DNA of 64,000 nucleotides from Sphaerochaetaceae bacterium (GCA_024699225.1 JAILPZ010000046.1:1661-65660), one strand, 5' to 3'; positions 3,617-8,733 are shown, numbered from the stretch's first letter. Program-made: numbers and translations. The notes: generated by a model not told the origin, from the letters alone.

Positions 3617-4429
3617 TTAACCCGGCTGCTTTCCAATATAAGCAAGGATACCGCCGTCAACATACAGAACGTGACCGTTAACAAAGTCTGATGCATGAGA
3701 AGCAAGGAAGAGTGCCGGACCCTGAAGGTCTTCCGGAGTTCCCCATCTCTCTGCCGGTGTCTTTGCAACAATAAACTGGTCAAACGGATGGCGGCTACCG
3801 TCCGGCTGACGCTCTCTGAGAGGAGCTGTCTGCGGTGTGGCAATATATCCGGGTCCAATACCGTTACACTGAATGTTGTACTTACCGTACTCTGAACAGA
3901 TGTTTCTTGTGAGCATCTTAAGTCCGCCCTTAGCTGCTGCATAAGCACTGACTGTTTCTCTTCCGAGCTCACTCATCATTGAACAGATGTTAATGATCTT
4001 ACCTTCATTCTTCTTAATCATTCCGGGAAGAACTGCCTTGGCAACAATAAACGGACCGTTGAGGTCAACATCTATAACCTGGCGGAAATCTGCTGCTGAC
4101 ATCTCGAGCATAGGAATTCTCTTAATGATTCCTGCGTTGTTAACAAGAATATCAACTGATCTTCCGCAGTCTTTTTCAATCTGCTTTACGCATGCGTTAA
4201 CAGCTTCTTCATCTGTAACATCACAGACATATCCGTGAACATCCTTGATTCCTGCTTCTGCATATGCCTTGAAGCCTCTTTCAAGAGCTTCGTCATTTCT
4301 GTCATTAAAAACGATTGATGCACCGGCCTTTGCAAAGGCTGAAGCAATACCAAAACCGATTCCGTAGCTTGCTCCTGTAATCCAGGCGAGTTTGCCCTTG
4401 AGTGAAAATTTATCTTCTAAATAGCTCAT
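3617..4429 (-). CDS. short-chain dehydrogenase/reductase, gluconate 5-dehydrogenase / KduD-like
   Basis: TGASYGIG Rossmann motif, NNAG, and catalytic Y-x3-K (YAAAKGG). SD GGAGGG upstream. Substrate not determinable from sequence alone. Confidence 0.8.
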   Translation of the reverse strand: MSYLEDKFSLKGKLAWITGASYGIGFGIASAFAKAGASIVFNDRNDEALERGFKAYAEAGIKDVHGYVCDVTDEEAVNACVKQIEKDCGRSVDILVNNAGIIKRIPMLEMSAADFRQVIDVDLNGPFIVAKAVLPGMIKKNEGKIINICSMMSELGRETVSAYAAAKGGLKMLTRNICSEYGKYNIQCNGIGPGYIATPQTAPLRERQPDGSRHPFDQFIVAKTPAERWGTPEDLQGPALFLASHASDFVNGHVLYVDGGILAYIGKQPG

Positions 4430-4520
4430 AAGCCCTCCACTATCTATGATAAGGCCCGCCGCCCAAAAATGAAAGTGTTATTCAAACGTTGAATCTTTTG
4501 ATTATTCAGACAATCTGAAA

Positions 4521-5327
4521 TCACTTTTGGCGTGCCCTGAAGCTTTCAACTACCTTTTTCTGCCTTTCATCCATGAAGCAATAGATCTTCTTTTCTATCT
4601 CCTGCGGGATTCCAAAGACGGCCTCAGCTATTGCGCCGCAGATTGCTCCGGTGGTGTCACAGTCCCCGCCTATGCACATGCAGTTTCGTATGGAGTCCTC
4701 AAAATCACTTGCCTCATACAGGCTCTGGAATGCTGCCTGGCAGGTGCCGTCACAGACGCTGTACCACCTGTAGTTCTTTCTAAGGTAAGCCATGTCATAC
4801 GGGATTTTGTAGTAGTGTCCCTCCTCGTATGTTTTAAGCTCCTCCTTATTAAAGCCGTTTCTGGCAAGAAAAATCTGCACGGCTGTAGCCTCAGCTCCCA
4901 TAATTCCGTCCGGATGGTTGTGCGTTACTTCCGTCACCGCGCGGCTCATCTTAATGCAGTCTTCAAGATCCCTGGCAGCCCAGCCAACAGGAGAGACCCT
5001 CATGGCAGAGCCGTTTCCGCATGAGTTGTAAGGACCCATATCCGGATATCTCAGCCACTGTGCAAAATGTCCGCCGTAGCCTGCACGGGGATAGAGGGAG
5101 CCGAACTCCCTCATCCTCTTAACAGCAAATTCTGAGAGCTTTGAATAGTCGTTCTTATCCCGAAATCCGCTGTCTTCCCAGTCCATGATGGCCTGAGCCA
5201 GTGCTATTGTCATGATTGAGTCATCTGTCAAATTACAGGATGGCATGAGAAACTCAAACTTCTTTGTATGAATATTGTGCCACTCAAAACGTGAACCAAC
5301 TGTATCTCCAATTATTGCACCCAGCAT
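4521..5327 (-). CDS. ADP-ribosylglycohydrolase (ARH/DraG) family protein
   Basis: 268 aa with GAIIGDTVGSRFE, NSCGNGSAMRVSPVGW and GGDCDTTGAICGAIAEA blocks characteristic of the ARH fold. SD GGGAGG lies inside the end of the vWA gene. The ATG overlaps the vWA stop (TAATG). Confidence 0.85.
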   Translation of the reverse strand: MLGAIIGDTVGSRFEWHNIHTKKFEFLMPSCNLTDDSIMTIALAQAIMDWEDSGFRDKNDYSKLSEFAVKRMREFGSLYPRAGYGGHFAQWLRYPDMGPYNSCGNGSAMRVSPVGWAARDLEDCIKMSRAVTEVTHNHPDGIMGAEATAVQIFLARNGFNKEELKTYEEGHYYKIPYDMAYLRKNYRWYSVCDGTCQAAFQSLYEASDFEDSIRNCMCIGGDCDTTGAICGAIAEAVFGIPQEIEKKIYCFMDERQKKVVESFRARQK

Positions 5328-5974
5328 TATTTGTTCCTCCCTTCGTAGTCTGTCTTAATATCCTTTGCCCAGTTCTCTTCAACTATTCCGCTTCTTCTGA
5401 AAGAAGCAACTGTTTCATGCACGCAGGTATAGTTTATGTCCACTCCTGCCTTGTCATTATGGTAGTTAACAGCCCTGTCTGCTTTAATTCCATAGGCACC
5501 GGCTGTTTCTACAGCATCAATGTTTGCCCCCAGGAAGAGAAACTCCCAGCCGTATTTCTCCTGCTGCTTTAAAATCATGCTCTTAACGGTTTCTGAAGTA
5601 TACATTCTGGATGCATTCTCAAGTCCGTCTGTTGTTATAACAAACATGGTTTTCTCAGGTCTGTCCTCTTCTCTTGCATACTTGTGTACGTTTCCTATGT
5701 GGTGCACCGAAGAACCCAGGGCATCTATAAGAGCAGTACATCCGCGTGCAATATACTCCTTTTCAGTAAGTGGCGGGACTTCTGAAACCGGGACTCTGTC
5801 AAAAATCACCCTGGATTCAGAATCAAACAGAACAAGAGAAATCAGAGCCTCGCCCTCTTCCTTCTTCTGTTTCTCAATCATGGAGTTGAATCCTCCGATT
5901 GTATCCTGTGTAAGAGCACACATGCTTCCGCTGCTGTCCAGGATAAATACAAGTTCAGTTAAATCTTTTTTCAT
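5327..5974 (-). CDS. small cytoplasmic von Willebrand factor A (vWA) domain protein
   Basis: MIDAS motif DxSxS (FILDSSGSM) plus ITTDGLEN. No signal peptide or TM segment. The track start at 6007 is TTG; the ATG at 5974 is preceded by GGAGG with a 7-nt spacer. Confidence 0.8.
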   Translation of the reverse strand: MKKDLTELVFILDSSGSMCALTQDTIGGFNSMIEKQKKEEGEALISLVLFDSESRVIFDRVPVSEVPPLTEKEYIARGCTALIDALGSSVHHIGNVHKYAREEDRPEKTMFVITTDGLENASRMYTSETVKSMILKQQEKYGWEFLFLGANIDAVETAGAYGIKADRAVNYHNDKAGVDINYTCVHETVASFRRSGIVEENWAKDIKTDYEGRNK

Positions 5975-6035
5975 TTGGTTACCTCCGCTTTTTAAGCTTG
6001 TAATCAAATGATATTGATTTTCATTTTTTCATGGC

Positions 6036-7052
6036 TTAACTGTCAGTTAATGCTCCCGGAAGCATCTGGAGATCCAGGGAATACAAAGCTTCGTCTATCT
6101 TGTAACGGTCATATATTCCCTCGGATATAAACGAAGAAACAACTATATCCTGCAAAGAAGACTGGTTTATGGCATAGCCGGCCTTCATCAGCATCTCCAC
6201 TGTTTCATCCAAAGAAAGCTTCAGTTCTATGGCTATGGCAAACACAGTAAGCTTGGAAGGATTTGACTTGCCTGTAAGAATCTTCCAGAACCCGACACCG
6301 GACATACCTATAGGGTCCTGCACCGCTGAGTGCGGGAGGTTTCTCTCCTTAAGAAGCCTTGAAAGCATGGCCCCGAAATTCTCATCCAGTACTACTCTGT
6401 CAAGATTCTTCTGTGTTGGATTTTTTATGAGGTCATTTATTAAATCATTGTCCAGAAAACGTACTACATTCTCACAACAGATTCCAGGTTCAGATAAAGG
6501 CTCTTCGTCGTATTCGTTCTCACTTCTATAGTAGCGGACAATATTTTCACTTACTGCTTCAAAGATTTCTGAGGGGACAGTCCTGCCCCAGCGGCCGTAG
6601 ACTGCAAGAGTTATCTCCATGTCGGGAAACTCTTCCATCTTTTCCTTTATGGCATCTGTTGCAACGGTAAGGGCCGCCTCTTTGGGAAATCCCTTTCCCT
6701 GGGACGAGATGAGAGGAAAGGCTATGCTCTTGCAGCCTAAGTGGTCTGCAAGTGAGATTGCGTTTCTGTAGCATGAACCGAGAACTATATACTCAAGATC
6801 GCTCTTTCCGGTCCAGTGAGGACCTGAGGTGTGAATTATGTATTTGCAGGGAAGACCAAAGCTCTCAGTTACCCTGACCTCTCCCAGATGAAGAGGAGGA
6901 TAGCATGAAAGCTCTTCTTCAAGATCCTCCCCGCACTTTTCATGTATGGCCCTGTCCACCCCGCCACCGCCTGAATATCTGCTGTCTGTGGGGTTTACAA
7001 TTGAATCTGCCTTTAACTCAGTAATATCTGCATAAATAATTTTAAAACTCAT
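6036..7052 (-). CDS. macro domain (MacroD-like ADP-ribose binding/hydrolase) fused to a C-terminal XRE-type HTH
   Basis: From the ATG at 7052: MSFKIIYADITELKADSIVNPT..GGGGVDRAIH..KYIIHTSGPHW..SIAFPLISS, which are macro motifs. The C-terminus FGAMLSRLLKERNLPHSAVQDPIGMSGVGFWKILTGKSNPSKLTVFAIAIELKLSLDE resembles a Cro/C1 HTH. The 46-codon upstream extension in the track overlaps the preceding gene and was rejected. Confidence 0.8.
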   Translation of the reverse strand: MSFKIIYADITELKADSIVNPTDSRYSGGGGVDRAIHEKCGEDLEEELSCYPPLHLGEVRVTESFGLPCKYIIHTSGPHWTGKSDLEYIVLGSCYRNAISLADHLGCKSIAFPLISSQGKGFPKEAALTVATDAIKEKMEEFPDMEITLAVYGRWGRTVPSEIFEAVSENIVRYYRSENEYDEEPLSEPGICCENVVRFLDNDLINDLIKNPTQKNLDRVVLDENFGAMLSRLLKERNLPHSAVQDPIGMSGVGFWKILTGKSNPSKLTVFAIAIELKLSLDETVEMLMKAGYAINQSSLQDIVVSSFISEGIYDRYKIDEALYSLDLQMLPGALTDS

Positions 7053-7058
7053 GCATAT

Positions 7059-7067
7059 ATTATAGCA
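7059..7067 (-). promoter_or_regulatory. extended -10 promoter (TGcTATAAT) placed 6 nt upstream of the macro-HTH ATG (leaderless geometry)
   Basis: Minus strand reads TTTTTTGTGCTATAATATATGCATG. There is no SD between the -10 and the ATG. Confidence 0.5.
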
Positions 7068-7068
7068 C

Positions 7069-7098
7069 AAAAAAGGGTAGCACCTTCTGGTGCAGCCC
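7069..7098 (-). terminator. rho-independent terminator after the beta-helix protein gene
   Basis: Minus strand reads GGGCTGCACC-AGAA-GGTGCTACCC followed by TTTTTT. The stem is GGG/CCC plus GCACC/GGTGC with a 2-nt internal mismatch. It starts 10 nt after the stop at 7108. Confidence 0.6.
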
Positions 7099-7107
7099 TG
7101 TGGTCTC

Positions 7108-8733
7108 TTAGTATCTGGGTCCGAAGAACACCATAAAGCCTGAAACCTGACCTGTCGGAGCCTGTCCGCCCGGGAAACCTCCCTGAGCACCCATGCCTCC
7201 GCCTACGTTCATTCCAAGTGTTCCGTTGGCTGATGTGTAACTTGTAGTTGTGTAAGTTATCAGTGACTTTGAAGTACTGAAACCTTCAGCTGAAGTTACC
7301 AGGCTGTCCTTCTCATCTGCTGCGGAGAATGTTCCTGTTGCAATTGTATAGGAGCTGTTGCCCTGAATGCTCTCGCTGCCGAATACAATTGTTGTGAATG
7401 TAATTCCGTCAGGAACAACAAAGCCCATTACTACATTTGAATTATTATCAAGAACAGCAATCTCGTCTCCGCTCTTGAATGTTGTCCCAATATAGCCCAG
7501 GCTGTAGGCAGTTGTGTCACTTGAACCGGGGACGTTGTTTCCTGTTCCAATTACTACAAAGGTTCCGCCTGTGTAGGAGAAGTTTGAATCATTGTCACAG
7601 TCTATTCCCTGCTCCATGTTAGTGGAATTGAGAACTATTACGGTTCCTCCGTTAATCTCAAGCTTTCCGTTTGAGTCAATTGTGTCGTTTGCAGTTGCAT
7701 TTGCATACACATAACCTCCGTTGAACTGAACAAGACTTCCGGCATTGATACTGTCATCTGTTGTGTTTATGTACAGAGTTCCTCCGTTGATAATCACAGC
7801 ATCCTTGCCTTCAATTCCTTCAGGTGAAAGTGATTCGTCCTCAGAAACCTCATACGGTGTGCCTGTTGTTGTAATAGTTATGTTTCCGCCGTTGATGTAA
7901 ACAGCTGCATACGGATCGTCTGATGTATCTGTTGTCTCAGCATCTTCCTCGGCTTCCCAGCCGGCTGTAATGGCCTTGCCGACACTTACAATATCAATAG
8001 TACCGCCGTTAATCTCAACATAGCCGCAGTCTCTGTCCTCACCTTCAACTCCGTTGACCTTAATTCCCTTGGACTCCTCGCCGTAAACATTTCCGTTCGC
8101 GCGGATTGTAAGAGTTCCGTCGTTCATTACAAAGAAGACATCTGCACTGATCATGTTGCCCTCAGCTGCCTCGTCTCCGTTGATGGTGACATTTCCGCTG
8201 TTGATGGTAAGTCCGCCGTCTGTCTTGATTCCGTGCTTCTTGTAAACTTCAACAGTAAGGGAACCTGTTCCCTCAATTGTGACATCTCCGGAACCTGTAA
8301 CTACTCCCTTCTTCTCGTTTGAAGAACTGTCACAGATATAGTTCTCGCTGCCATCTGCAAGGGTGAGTGTACAAACTGTCTCACTCTTGAGCTGGATGGC
8401 CGGAAGGTTCTGGCCTCTGATGTCCGCATTGTCGAGTACGATTGTGTAATCAGCATTATCTGATTTGACAATCAGTGTCCCTTCGAGAAGACCGCTTACA
8501 GTAAAGACGGCCTCTTCTGTTCCAGTATATGTAAGTTCATAATTACCGTCTTCGTTGTAAGAAGCGCTGAATGAAGATTCATCTCCGCTCGTCAGAACAA
8601 CTGTGAATTCATCAGTTGCTGCAGCTTCCGTAACACTCTGTGTCACTGCTTCTTCCTTGCTTCCACCAGCCCAAAGAACTGCTGATGAAAGAAAAACCAA
8701 AACAATAAGTACAATTGAAACTATTCTTTTCAT
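7108..8733 (-). CDS. secreted parallel beta-helix protein, Cthe_2159-like carbohydrate-binding domain family
   Basis: Signal peptide MKRIVSIVLIVLVFLSSAVLWA. Repeated turn motifs INGGTIDI, INGGNITI, INGGTLYI and INGGTVIV. Gly-rich C-terminus. SD GGAGGA upstream. Confidence 0.65.
   Translation of the reverse strand: MKRIVSIVLIVLVFLSSAVLWAGGSKEEAVTQSVTEAAATDEFTVVLTSGDESSFSASYNEDGNYELTYTGTEEAVFTVSGLLEGTLIVKSDNADYTIVLDNADIRGQNLPAIQLKSETVCTLTLADGSENYICDSSSNEKKGVVTGSGDVTIEGTGSLTVEVYKKHGIKTDGGLTINSGNVTINGDEAAEGNMISADVFFVMNDGTLTIRANGNVYGEESKGIKVNGVEGEDRDCGYVEINGGTIDIVSVGKAITAGWEAEEDAETTDTSDDPYAAVYINGGNITITTTGTPYEVSEDESLSPEGIEGKDAVIINGGTLYINTTDDSINAGSLVQFNGGYVYANATANDTIDSNGKLEINGGTVIVLNSTNMEQGIDCDNDSNFSYTGGTFVVIGTGNNVPGSSDTTAYSLGYIGTTFKSGDEIAVLDNNSNVVMGFVVPDGITFTTIVFGSESIQGNSSYTIATGTFSAADEKDSLVTSAEGFSTSKSLITYTTTSYTSANGTLGMNVGGGMGAQGGFPGGQAPTGQVSGFMVFFGPRY

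Follow-up and report, generated by a model that had tools for sequence, protein, structure and literature searches.

A Macro-HTH and vWA Gene Pair with an Accessory ADP-Ribosylglycohydrolase: A Candidate ADP-Ribose Reader/Eraser Cassette without a Linked Transferase

Introduction

ADP-ribosylation is a central currency of the conflict between bacteria and their phages and plasmids (Alt/Mod, DarT, CmdT, AcrIF11, Tre1). To our knowledge, almost nothing has been learned about dedicated systems that undo foreign ADP-ribosylation, and the sole proposal of such systems is a computational one. It concerns the 'ARG-centric' host systems, which are predicted to undo viral ADP-ribosylation and contain no transferase (Iyer et al. 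2022, Viruses 14:1977, section 3.8; PMC9503650). These systems, known from comparative genomics alone, combine the hydrolase with Nudix-HTH or WYL-HTH sensors, phosphatases including those of the HD type, chaperones including vWA proteins and, occasionally, a Macro or NADAR domain (PMC9503650). In NrtR, an ADP-ribose-binding Nudix-related domain is fused to a DNA-binding domain, and the protein controls adjacent genes (cited in PMC9503650). Here we describe a cassette on the minus strand of a 64,000-nucleotide stretch of DNA from Sphaerochaetaceae bacterium (GCA_024699225.1 JAILPZ010000046.1:1661-65660; the whole stretch is called the window below, and positions are counted from its first letter). 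Three head-to-tail open reading frames (ORFs) encode a macro domain fused to a helix-turn-helix domain (macro-HTH; 7052-6036, 338 amino acids), a small von Willebrand factor A protein (vWA; 5974-5327, 215 amino acids) and an ADP-ribosylglycohydrolase of the ARH/DraG family (ARH; 5327-4521, 268 amino acids). Identical products are found in independent public gene calls for the same organism (Logan contigs), in agreement with an earlier note that had read three tightly packed genes from the sequence.

We propose that the cassette is a mobile, writer-less ADP-ribose reader/eraser device in which macro-HTH would be the sensor-regulator, the vWA protein, with its metal-ion-dependent adhesion site (MIDAS), the adaptor, and ARH an exchangeable hydrolase; judging from gene context, we give this proposal a probability of roughly 0.45. 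The earlier note did not recognise the three genes as a described system. This holds for the architecture itself, and no description of the macro-HTH and vWA pair was found in the openly accessible literature, but an analogous writer-less class, the ARG-centric one, has already been predicted (PMC9503650).

Results

The genomic survey covered one genome per species and found relatives of the vWA protein in at least 572 genomes. The best 80 loci, mostly from Oscillospiraceae, Acutalibacteraceae and Lachnospiraceae, were examined by calling ORFs and searching them with the window proteins. Of the 72 loci that have 1.3 kb of flank or more, 65 have a macro-HTH gene on the 5' side of the vWA gene and in the same orientation (49 of the 52 with at least 6 kb), and the two adjoin directly in about half of the linked loci. 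ARH, in contrast, is present in only 10 of the 53 genomic loci for which both flanks were available, and in 19 of 80 viral loci, i.e., in about 20%. Because of this difference, the conserved unit is the macro-HTH and vWA pair, and ARH is an accessory. The earlier note had taken the whole triad for the unit and had named a lack of co-conservation as grounds for giving it up; the linkage of the first two genes stands, and what falls away is the constancy of ARH, which is optional and interchangeable with PARG, HD and NUDIX proteins.

Where ARH is present, it is always the immediate neighbour of the vWA gene, either on its 3' side, as in the window, or on its 5' side. The ARH-vWA junctions are mostly -4, -1, +3, +12 or +13 nt, and in at least three proteins (L065, L059, P0253) the two are fused in frame. 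The partners found at other loci are varied: at one locus (L001) they are PARG and an ankyrin protein; an HD_4 phosphohydrolase adjoins the vWA gene in a phage and is fused to it in P0381; NUDIX occurs at three loci and on plasmid pSRC2; and an ArsC/Spx-family gene and SIMPL/DUF541 are also among the partners. The genes that flank the module differ in nearly every genome. Judged from these arrangements, the vWA protein is a hub for exchangeable ADP-ribose-processing enzymes, and it is well supported by comparative sequence evidence that the three genes of the window are functionally linked and not neighbours by chance. With its linkage counts, tight junctions and fusions, the survey bears out the idea of a linked ADP-ribose-processing module.

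Two further sets of genes were seen within or beside the module. In about six genomes a gene for an ArsC/Spx/glutaredoxin-like protein of approximately 118 amino acids lies between macro-HTH and vWA (L088 8342-8698; L016, L019, L055, L064). Small P-loop proteins accompany the module in phage, plasmid and integrative mobilisable element (IME) copies (L093 4466-4921, L099 5781-6293, L089 9314-9859); they belong to AAA_28 (NadR-kinase-like) or AAA_33, or are weakly similar to the ABC nucleotide-binding domain.

The macro domain of the first protein is unambiguous by Pfam (PF01661, residues 19-131, E 5.6e-32, 110.6 bits against a gathering cut-off of 22), and its nearest solved relatives are the macro domains of PARP14 (E 1.1e-25), MacroD1 (2.5e-23) and MacroD2 (1.7e-21), together with bacterial MacroD-type enzymes, so that its earlier description as MacroD-like stands. 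In NCBIfam, the closest models describe O-acetyl-ADP-ribose deacetylases (E 3.4e-35), with a score short of the cut-off. In the alignment with human MacroD1, D184 and H188 are retained (D33 and H37 in the window protein), and two canonical features are missing: D23 (VNPTD) takes the place of the catalytic asparagine of the N-A-A-N motif (N174 of human MacroD1), and phosphate loop 2 reads S-Q-G-K-G-F-P instead of the T-G-V-F-G-Y-P of MacroD1 (G-[VIA]-[YF]-G). The loop 2 change is common to the whole window clade (L001, L003, L008, L009). Among 62 macro-HTH orthologues, 37 have fully canonical catalytic loops.

The AlphaFold model of macro-HTH consists of a confident macro domain at residues 1-153 (nt 7052-6594), a disordered acidic linker at 154-222 and a confident helical domain at 225-328, with helices at 226-236, 242-245, 252-259, 267-276 and 281-290 and two more behind them. 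When the C-terminal domain alone was searched for homologues, it gave 3 matches only, and its profile was built from 19 orthologues taken out of the loci. Of the 19 PDB matches of this profile, 18 are HTH proteins and 17 of them are XRE-type or named XRE-type regulators, and HTH_26 is weakly matched by 11 of the 19 orthologues (best E 0.0017). By profile and model, the domain (residues 223-330, nt 6386-6063) is likely a divergent XRE-type HTH with two extra helices.

The vWA protein has no Pfam match above threshold (VWA_2 14.6 bits against 27, E 0.054; VWA 13.1 against 23.8), and no meaningful PDB sequence match was obtained for the protein or its profile. Its model (predicted local distance difference test, pLDDT, 92.1; predicted template modelling score, pTM, 0.91) has a vWA fold, and Foldseek places it with probability 1.0 and a template modelling score of 0.6 to 0.72 against the integrin alpha-M/X I-domains, the TRAP vWA domain and CMG2. 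The MIDAS residues D13-x-S15-x-S17, T80 and D116 are complete, invariant in 24 homologues and predicted to bind Mg2+; the family also has the motif HHIGNVHKYAREED and, in the same homologues, invariant charged motifs. Residues 2-13 form the first beta strand, and because this strand already starts at residue 2, the protein has no signal peptide and is cytoplasmic; an intact MIDAS without an export signal is what had been predicted for this gene. Relatives of the protein number 13,000 or more, and clustering at 50% identity leaves 3,661 groups with E<=1e-30; the window protein matches phrog_7371, a family without assigned function (E 4e-59), and some homologues are named 'YegL' by JGI.

In the wider vWA family, fusions with a retroviral-type aspartyl protease and with ankyrin repeats were seen in a search of representatives (P0353, P0282), and several members have N-terminal extensions of 140-260 amino acids without a Pfam match. 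The GenBank phage records that carry a vWA homologue number 217. Distant homologues (35-37% identity) adjoin arrays of tRNA genes in three actinophages, namely Streptomyces phage Jay2Jay (gp102, L094 3989-4591), Mycobacterium phage Myrna (gp207, L095 3992-4744) and Gordonia phage Sixama (gp128, L101 3501-4175), and in Jay2Jay a gene for an RNA-repair nucleotidyltransferase of the RlaP type is close by as well. These cases may point to some function of the wider family connected with RNA or tRNA.

The third protein belongs to PF03747 (E 1.9e-34, 120.1 bits against a gathering cut-off of 26.2), as expected of an ARH/DraG-family hydrolase. All of its metal and catalytic motifs are present, i.e., GDxxGxxxE (G7, D8...E15), TDD (T34, D35, D36) and GGDCDTT (G220, D222, D224, T225), and the motifs of the binuclear metal site align to 2cwc and ARH3. 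Its subfamily and linkage specificity are not assignable because the scores with the DraG and Tri1 equivalogs are far below their cut-offs. The cassette had been said to pair two different ADP-ribose 'erasers', a reading that the earlier note made conditional on ligand-binding or catalytic residues in both. The two families are confirmed and the ARH motifs are complete; the window macro domain lacks the two MacroD features named above, and the 'two erasers' may be one reader plus one eraser. An ARH or PARG gene stands beside 12 of 22 non-canonical macro variants, including the whole window clade, versus 2 of 40 canonical or near-canonical ones, which suggests that drift of the macro domain to a binding-only or altered-specificity form goes with recruitment of a separate hydrolase.

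The absence of a linked writer is well supported. No transferase is encoded in the window between 532 and approximately 15 kb, i.e., within approximately 4.5 kb downstream and 8 kb upstream of the cassette, as judged on one side from ORF translations with PfkB, PNP, ALDH and SDR motifs and on the other from Pfam labels, and DarT is adjacent in none of approximately 170 loci examined. The earlier remark that no writer is in sight extends beyond the window, as none is conserved among approximately 240 neighbour proteins. A conserved link between PARP writers and the vWA gene was considered and rejected: among approximately 100 viral loci, there are two cases, one adjacent (Xanthomonas jumbo phage XacN1) and one in which the PARP gene lies 4.6 kb from the vWA gene (IMG/VR contig L143).

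Copies of the module were seen on chromosomes and in prophages, on a plasmid, in one annotated phage genome and in a family of mobilisable elements. Its carriers are Bacillota and Spirochaetota, besides a small number of bins placed in Bacteroidota and Coriobacteriia. Many copies, among them that of the window and those of many Clostridia, are chromosomal and have housekeeping genes around them. The vWA gene is also present on 327 IMG/VR contigs, the best 80 of which were examined; macro-HTH was found in 37 of these and ARH in the 19 mentioned above, many with the exact gene order of the window and a 4-nt overlap. The viral copies have integrases, serine recombinases, Ant/Bro antirepressors, S24 repressors and a minor capsid protein as neighbours, as in prophage accessory regions. 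In an annotated 64-kb human-gut phage the order is macro-HTH, a small P-loop-like protein, vWA and HD; the macro-HTH protein is 35% identical to that of the window over its full length, and the module adjoins a methyltransferase and a helicase. On the Selenomonas plasmid pSRC2, a macro-domain gene and vWA are accompanied by AAA_28 and NUDIX.

In the IMEs the order is integrase, excisionase-like HTH, ImmA/XRE, macro-HTH, a 510-amino-acid protein, Y-family polymerase, YolD, vWA, SIMPL, MobC and relaxase. The 510-amino-acid protein is always found between macro-HTH and the polymerase (L015 3417-4949; L014, L020, L102, L104-L107); it was checked as a hidden transferase and has neither a Pfam match nor a PDB sequence match, and a catalytic role is still conceivable for it. 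The SIMPL/DUF541 gene overlaps the vWA stop by 4 nt in these elements (L015 7657-8316; L020, L022, L035, L104, L106, L107); the family is usually considered periplasmic or secreted.

The expression signals of the cassette, all on the minus strand, begin with a hairpin and T-run at 7098-7069 (GGGCTGCACC-AGAA-GGTGCTACCC), which a terminator scan matched at 7093-7080 and which likely serves as intrinsic terminator for the gene upstream, a member of the Cthe_2159 family with its stop at 7108; the folding energy of the hairpin is unexceptional (-19.7 kcal/mol, z only -1.45). An extended -10 box, TGcTATAAT, at 7067-7059 stands 6 nt before the macro-HTH ATG, where there is no Shine-Dalgarno (SD) sequence, just as had been read from the sequence; the box was not called by the promoter scan because it has no -35. 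Since it ends so close to an ATG without an SD, the macro-HTH transcript is probably leaderless in the window. This layout is peculiar to the window: nearly all of 37 orthologous genes have a purine-rich, mostly GGAGG-like SD and a conventional leader. The vWA gene has a GGAGG SD at 5986-5982, 7 nt before its ATG. A second GGAGG, at 5340-5336 within the vWA coding sequence, stands 8 nt before the ARH ATG, and the vWA stop and this ATG share one base (TAATG, 5329-5325); both signs of coupling named in the earlier note are present. On the other side, the terminator scan detected nothing from the ARH stop (4521) to the SDR gene that follows at 4429; 4430-4520 holds only weak AT-rich hairpins (TTCAGA-TTG-TCTGAA and ATTCAA-CGT-TTGAAT) without a T-run terminator. 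The cassette, which had been called insulated, is therefore insulated on its upstream side only, and read-through from ARH into the genes for SDR, aldehyde dehydrogenase, nucleoside phosphorylase and PfkB kinase would be possible. The flanking genes of the window are metabolic (nucleoside phosphorylase, PfkB kinase, NDK), and the GC content of the cassette equals that of its flanks, so that the test for recent transfer gave no compositional anomaly.

Discussion

We suppose that the cassette protects the replicon that carries it, be it a chromosome, a prophage or a mobilisable element, from ADP-ribosylation by a transferase encoded elsewhere, which may stem, for example, from phage or host defence, from a toxin or from a different mobile element. 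Macro-HTH would most likely be a one-component regulator. Its macro domain would take ADP-ribose or an ADP-ribosylated molecule as ligand and, in the canonical clade, act on it as a hydrolase too. The ligand on the macro domain would set DNA binding by the HTH and hence expression of the operon. The vWA protein, with Mg2+ in its MIDAS, would be an adaptor that holds the modified target, or holds the hydrolase on the target, and the second, exchangeable hydrolase, which is ARH in the window and PARG, HD or NUDIX elsewhere, would dock on it. In the window itself, the macro domain would probably be mainly an ADP-ribose sensor, and hydrolysis would fall to the translationally coupled ARH. The ligand, the target, regulation by the HTH, the complex of vWA with the hydrolase and the biological role are all inferred. 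In a bolder and more doubtful form of the proposal, the MIDAS-vWA protein would be a dedicated and previously unrecognised adaptor/reader of ADP-ribosylation systems in prokaryotes and phages. It would bring a changing set of enzymes, namely macro, ARH, PARG, HD, NUDIX and, in some phages, a PARP writer, to one conserved cellular target, and macro-HTH would be the first macro-based one-component transcription factor. The two together would form a horizontally mobile anti-ADP-ribosylation immunity cassette, of use to hosts facing the transferases of phages and to mobile elements facing those of the host.

A number of observations weigh against the proposed sensor and adaptor roles. The evidence as a whole is computational, i.e., sequence, predicted structure and gene context. 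The XRE-type HTH named in the earlier note is made likely by most of its PDB profile matches, but the C-terminal domain is below every Pfam HTH cut-off (HTH_3, E 0.02), and the matches to CylR2 (the best, E 0.006), HipB, SinR and Stl are all weak. Inverted repeats, as candidate operators, show no enrichment in the upstream regions of macro-HTH genes (38 genes; the best arm averages 5.03, versus 4.84 in shuffled sequences), in a weak test that considered perfect arms only, and the self-regulation supposed in the earlier note drew no support from it. Most orthologues keep a canonical and presumably active MacroD site, which is odd for a pure sensor. The association of ARH or PARG with macro variants has a Fisher p of 1.8e-5 over 62 orthologues, with no phylogenetic correction, and draws on approximately five clades. 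The vWA family is highly conserved, with 63-71% identity across phyla among the at least 8,000 clusters listed, and this is unlike the target-recognition parts of conflict systems, which usually evolve fast. PADLOC models cover none of the three proteins and gave no match. The writer search took in 150 neighbour proteins from genomic loci and 93 from viral ones and found no ADP-ribosyltransferase, sirtuin or TIR in their 25 commonest Pfam families, so that a rarer or unrecognised transferase may have gone unseen; the variable fourth gene for a transferase that the earlier note had advised to look for did not appear among these commonest families. Lastly, a writer does stand next to a relative of the adaptor in phage XacN1, where the WGR-PARP gene ORF414 (L098 2678-3949) is 10 nt upstream of ORF413 (3959-4609), a distant vWA homologue; the contexts of the vWA family thus include more than erasers.

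Some of these observations also bear on other explanations. The HTH may tether the macro hydrolase to DNA instead of regulating transcription, and the module would then be concerned with DNA repair or establishment, its substrates being DNA adducts of the DarT, pierisin or ScARP type, ADP-ribosylated DNA ends or DNA-bound proteins; on mobile elements it would be an anti-defence function for incoming DNA. We regard this as rather unlikely, although it would account for the active-looking canonical site in most orthologues, for the missing operator-like repeats (38 genes, perfect arms only) and for the company of the XacN1 vWA homologue, since WGR-PARP has the architecture of a DNA-break-sensing type. 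In one IME family, the module is found among Y-family polymerase and YolD genes, just before the MobC-relaxase genes and oriented towards them. Leading regions are reported to hold anti-defence islands with oriT and umuCD homologues at their borders (Samuel et al. 2024; PMC11541004), and by gene order the IME copies fit the position and orientation of these islands. The neighbourhood of the methyltransferase and the helicase in the gut phage points in the same direction. The linkage to UmuC/YolD, however, comes from a single element family, makes up approximately 12% of loci and counts as one event, and the window copy, like many in Clostridia, is chromosomal, among housekeeping genes and without compositional anomaly. 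The disordered linker of 70 residues and the first position in the operon suit a regulator equally well. MacroD-type domains are also not known to remove thymidine-linked ADP-ribose, which counts against DNA adducts as substrates; DarG is TARG1-like.

By analogy with GcvH-L, the operon-encoded acceptor of the SirTM-macro system, the vWA protein may itself be a reversibly ADP-ribosylated substrate or switch, modified by a writer from elsewhere and reset by macro, ARH or PARG. Its standing as the constant partner of macro, ARH (to which it can be fused), PARG, HD, NUDIX and the WGR-PARP 10 nt upstream in XacN1 would agree with this, as would its unusual conservation and its invariant charged motifs. 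Nevertheless, fusion of a switch to its own eraser, as in ARH-vWA, makes little sense, the writer is adjacent once and 4.6 kb away in one more case, and no acceptor residue can be nominated; we hold this explanation to be improbable. No greater credence is given to housekeeping clean-up, in which macro and ARH, under NrtR-like control by the HTH and with no link to conflict, would hydrolyse free O-acetyl-ADP-ribose, ADP-ribose-1''-phosphate or similar by-products of NAD. The deacetylase models nearest to the macro domain, the metabolic flanks and native composition of the window copy, the silence of PADLOC and the NUDIX and AAA_28 (NadR-kinase-like) neighbours at some loci can all be cited for it. 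It leaves the obligatory MIDAS-vWA partner and the ARH-vWA fusions unexplained, however, and is at odds with the patchy distribution, which includes prophages, IMEs and phages, and with flanking genes that are different ones in almost all genomes. That three unrelated genes are adjacent by chance has next to no probability left: this is refuted by linkage in 65 of 72 loci across several phyla, by overlapping junctions, by repeated independent insertions of ARH on either side and by the fusions.

The cassette is of interest for several reasons. Gut Clostridia carry the module very commonly, and the counts stand at no fewer than 572 genomes of different species, protein clusters in the thousands and 327 viral contigs. 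Its two or three genes make it compact; it is also mobile, and it offers handles in the intact ARH, in the series of macro domains from canonical to degenerate and in a MIDAS that can be mutated, while the natural ARH-vWA fusions predict a complex. Should macro-HTH be a ligand-controlled repressor, it would represent a new class of sensors alongside NrtR, and recognition of ADP-ribosylated targets by the vWA protein, if it occurs, would make this protein a reader/adaptor of a novel kind.

Comparison with Described Systems

Among better-described arrangements, DarTG resembles the module in that a macro protein with a C-terminal extension reverses ADP-ribosylation, and in its role in phage defence; it differs in that the module has no DarT, its macro domain is MacroD-like and not TARG1-like, and the partner is a vWA protein. 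The operon of SirTM, macro, GcvH-L and LplA2 likewise places a MacroD-like eraser next to a non-enzymatic partner, but here there is no sirtuin, lipoate ligase, GcvH-like gene or writer. TerY-P and MoxR-vWA systems use a small cytoplasmic MIDAS-vWA protein as an adaptor, whereas neither PP2C, a kinase nor MoxR AAA+ is found in the window or among the frequent neighbour families, and the Pfam vWA-TerF-like and VWA models are only marginally matched by the vWA family. Eukaryotic PARP4 joins a vWA domain to an ADP-ribosylation enzyme, a resemblance by domain content only, and that enzyme is a writer, in contrast to the erasers of the window. NrtR is a Nudix sensor with a winged helix that controls NAD biosynthesis genes, whereas here a macro domain is joined to a likely XRE-type HTH, and the controlled genes, if any, would be those of vWA and the hydrolase.

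The likeness to the ARG-centric systems, the nearest described relatives, goes further. Both have an ARH/ARG hydrolase without a linked transferase or sirtuin, and macro-HTH would be the counterpart here of the one-component regulator there, in which an ADP-ribose-binding sensor is fused to an HTH. Both include a vWA gene, described there as a 'Mg2+-dependent peptide-binding chaperone' and adjacent or fused here, although the two vWA families were compared by description only. An HD phosphatase is optional in both, within a modular and variable periphery, to which Macro belongs there. The differences concern the core and the sensor: ARG is the core of those systems, whereas the core here is macro-HTH and vWA, with ARG at approximately 20% of loci, and the place of the Nudix or WYL sensor would be taken by a macro domain with its likely HTH, a functional analogue from another family. 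Rhodanese-phosphatases, which are frequent there, were not seen here, and the carriers are Bacillota and Spirochaetota, often by way of prophages, IMEs or phage, instead of actinobacteria, planctomycetes and proteobacteria. The module shares the logic and several parts of the published, predicted ARG-centric systems, to which it adds, in the macro-HTH and vWA pair, a new architecture.

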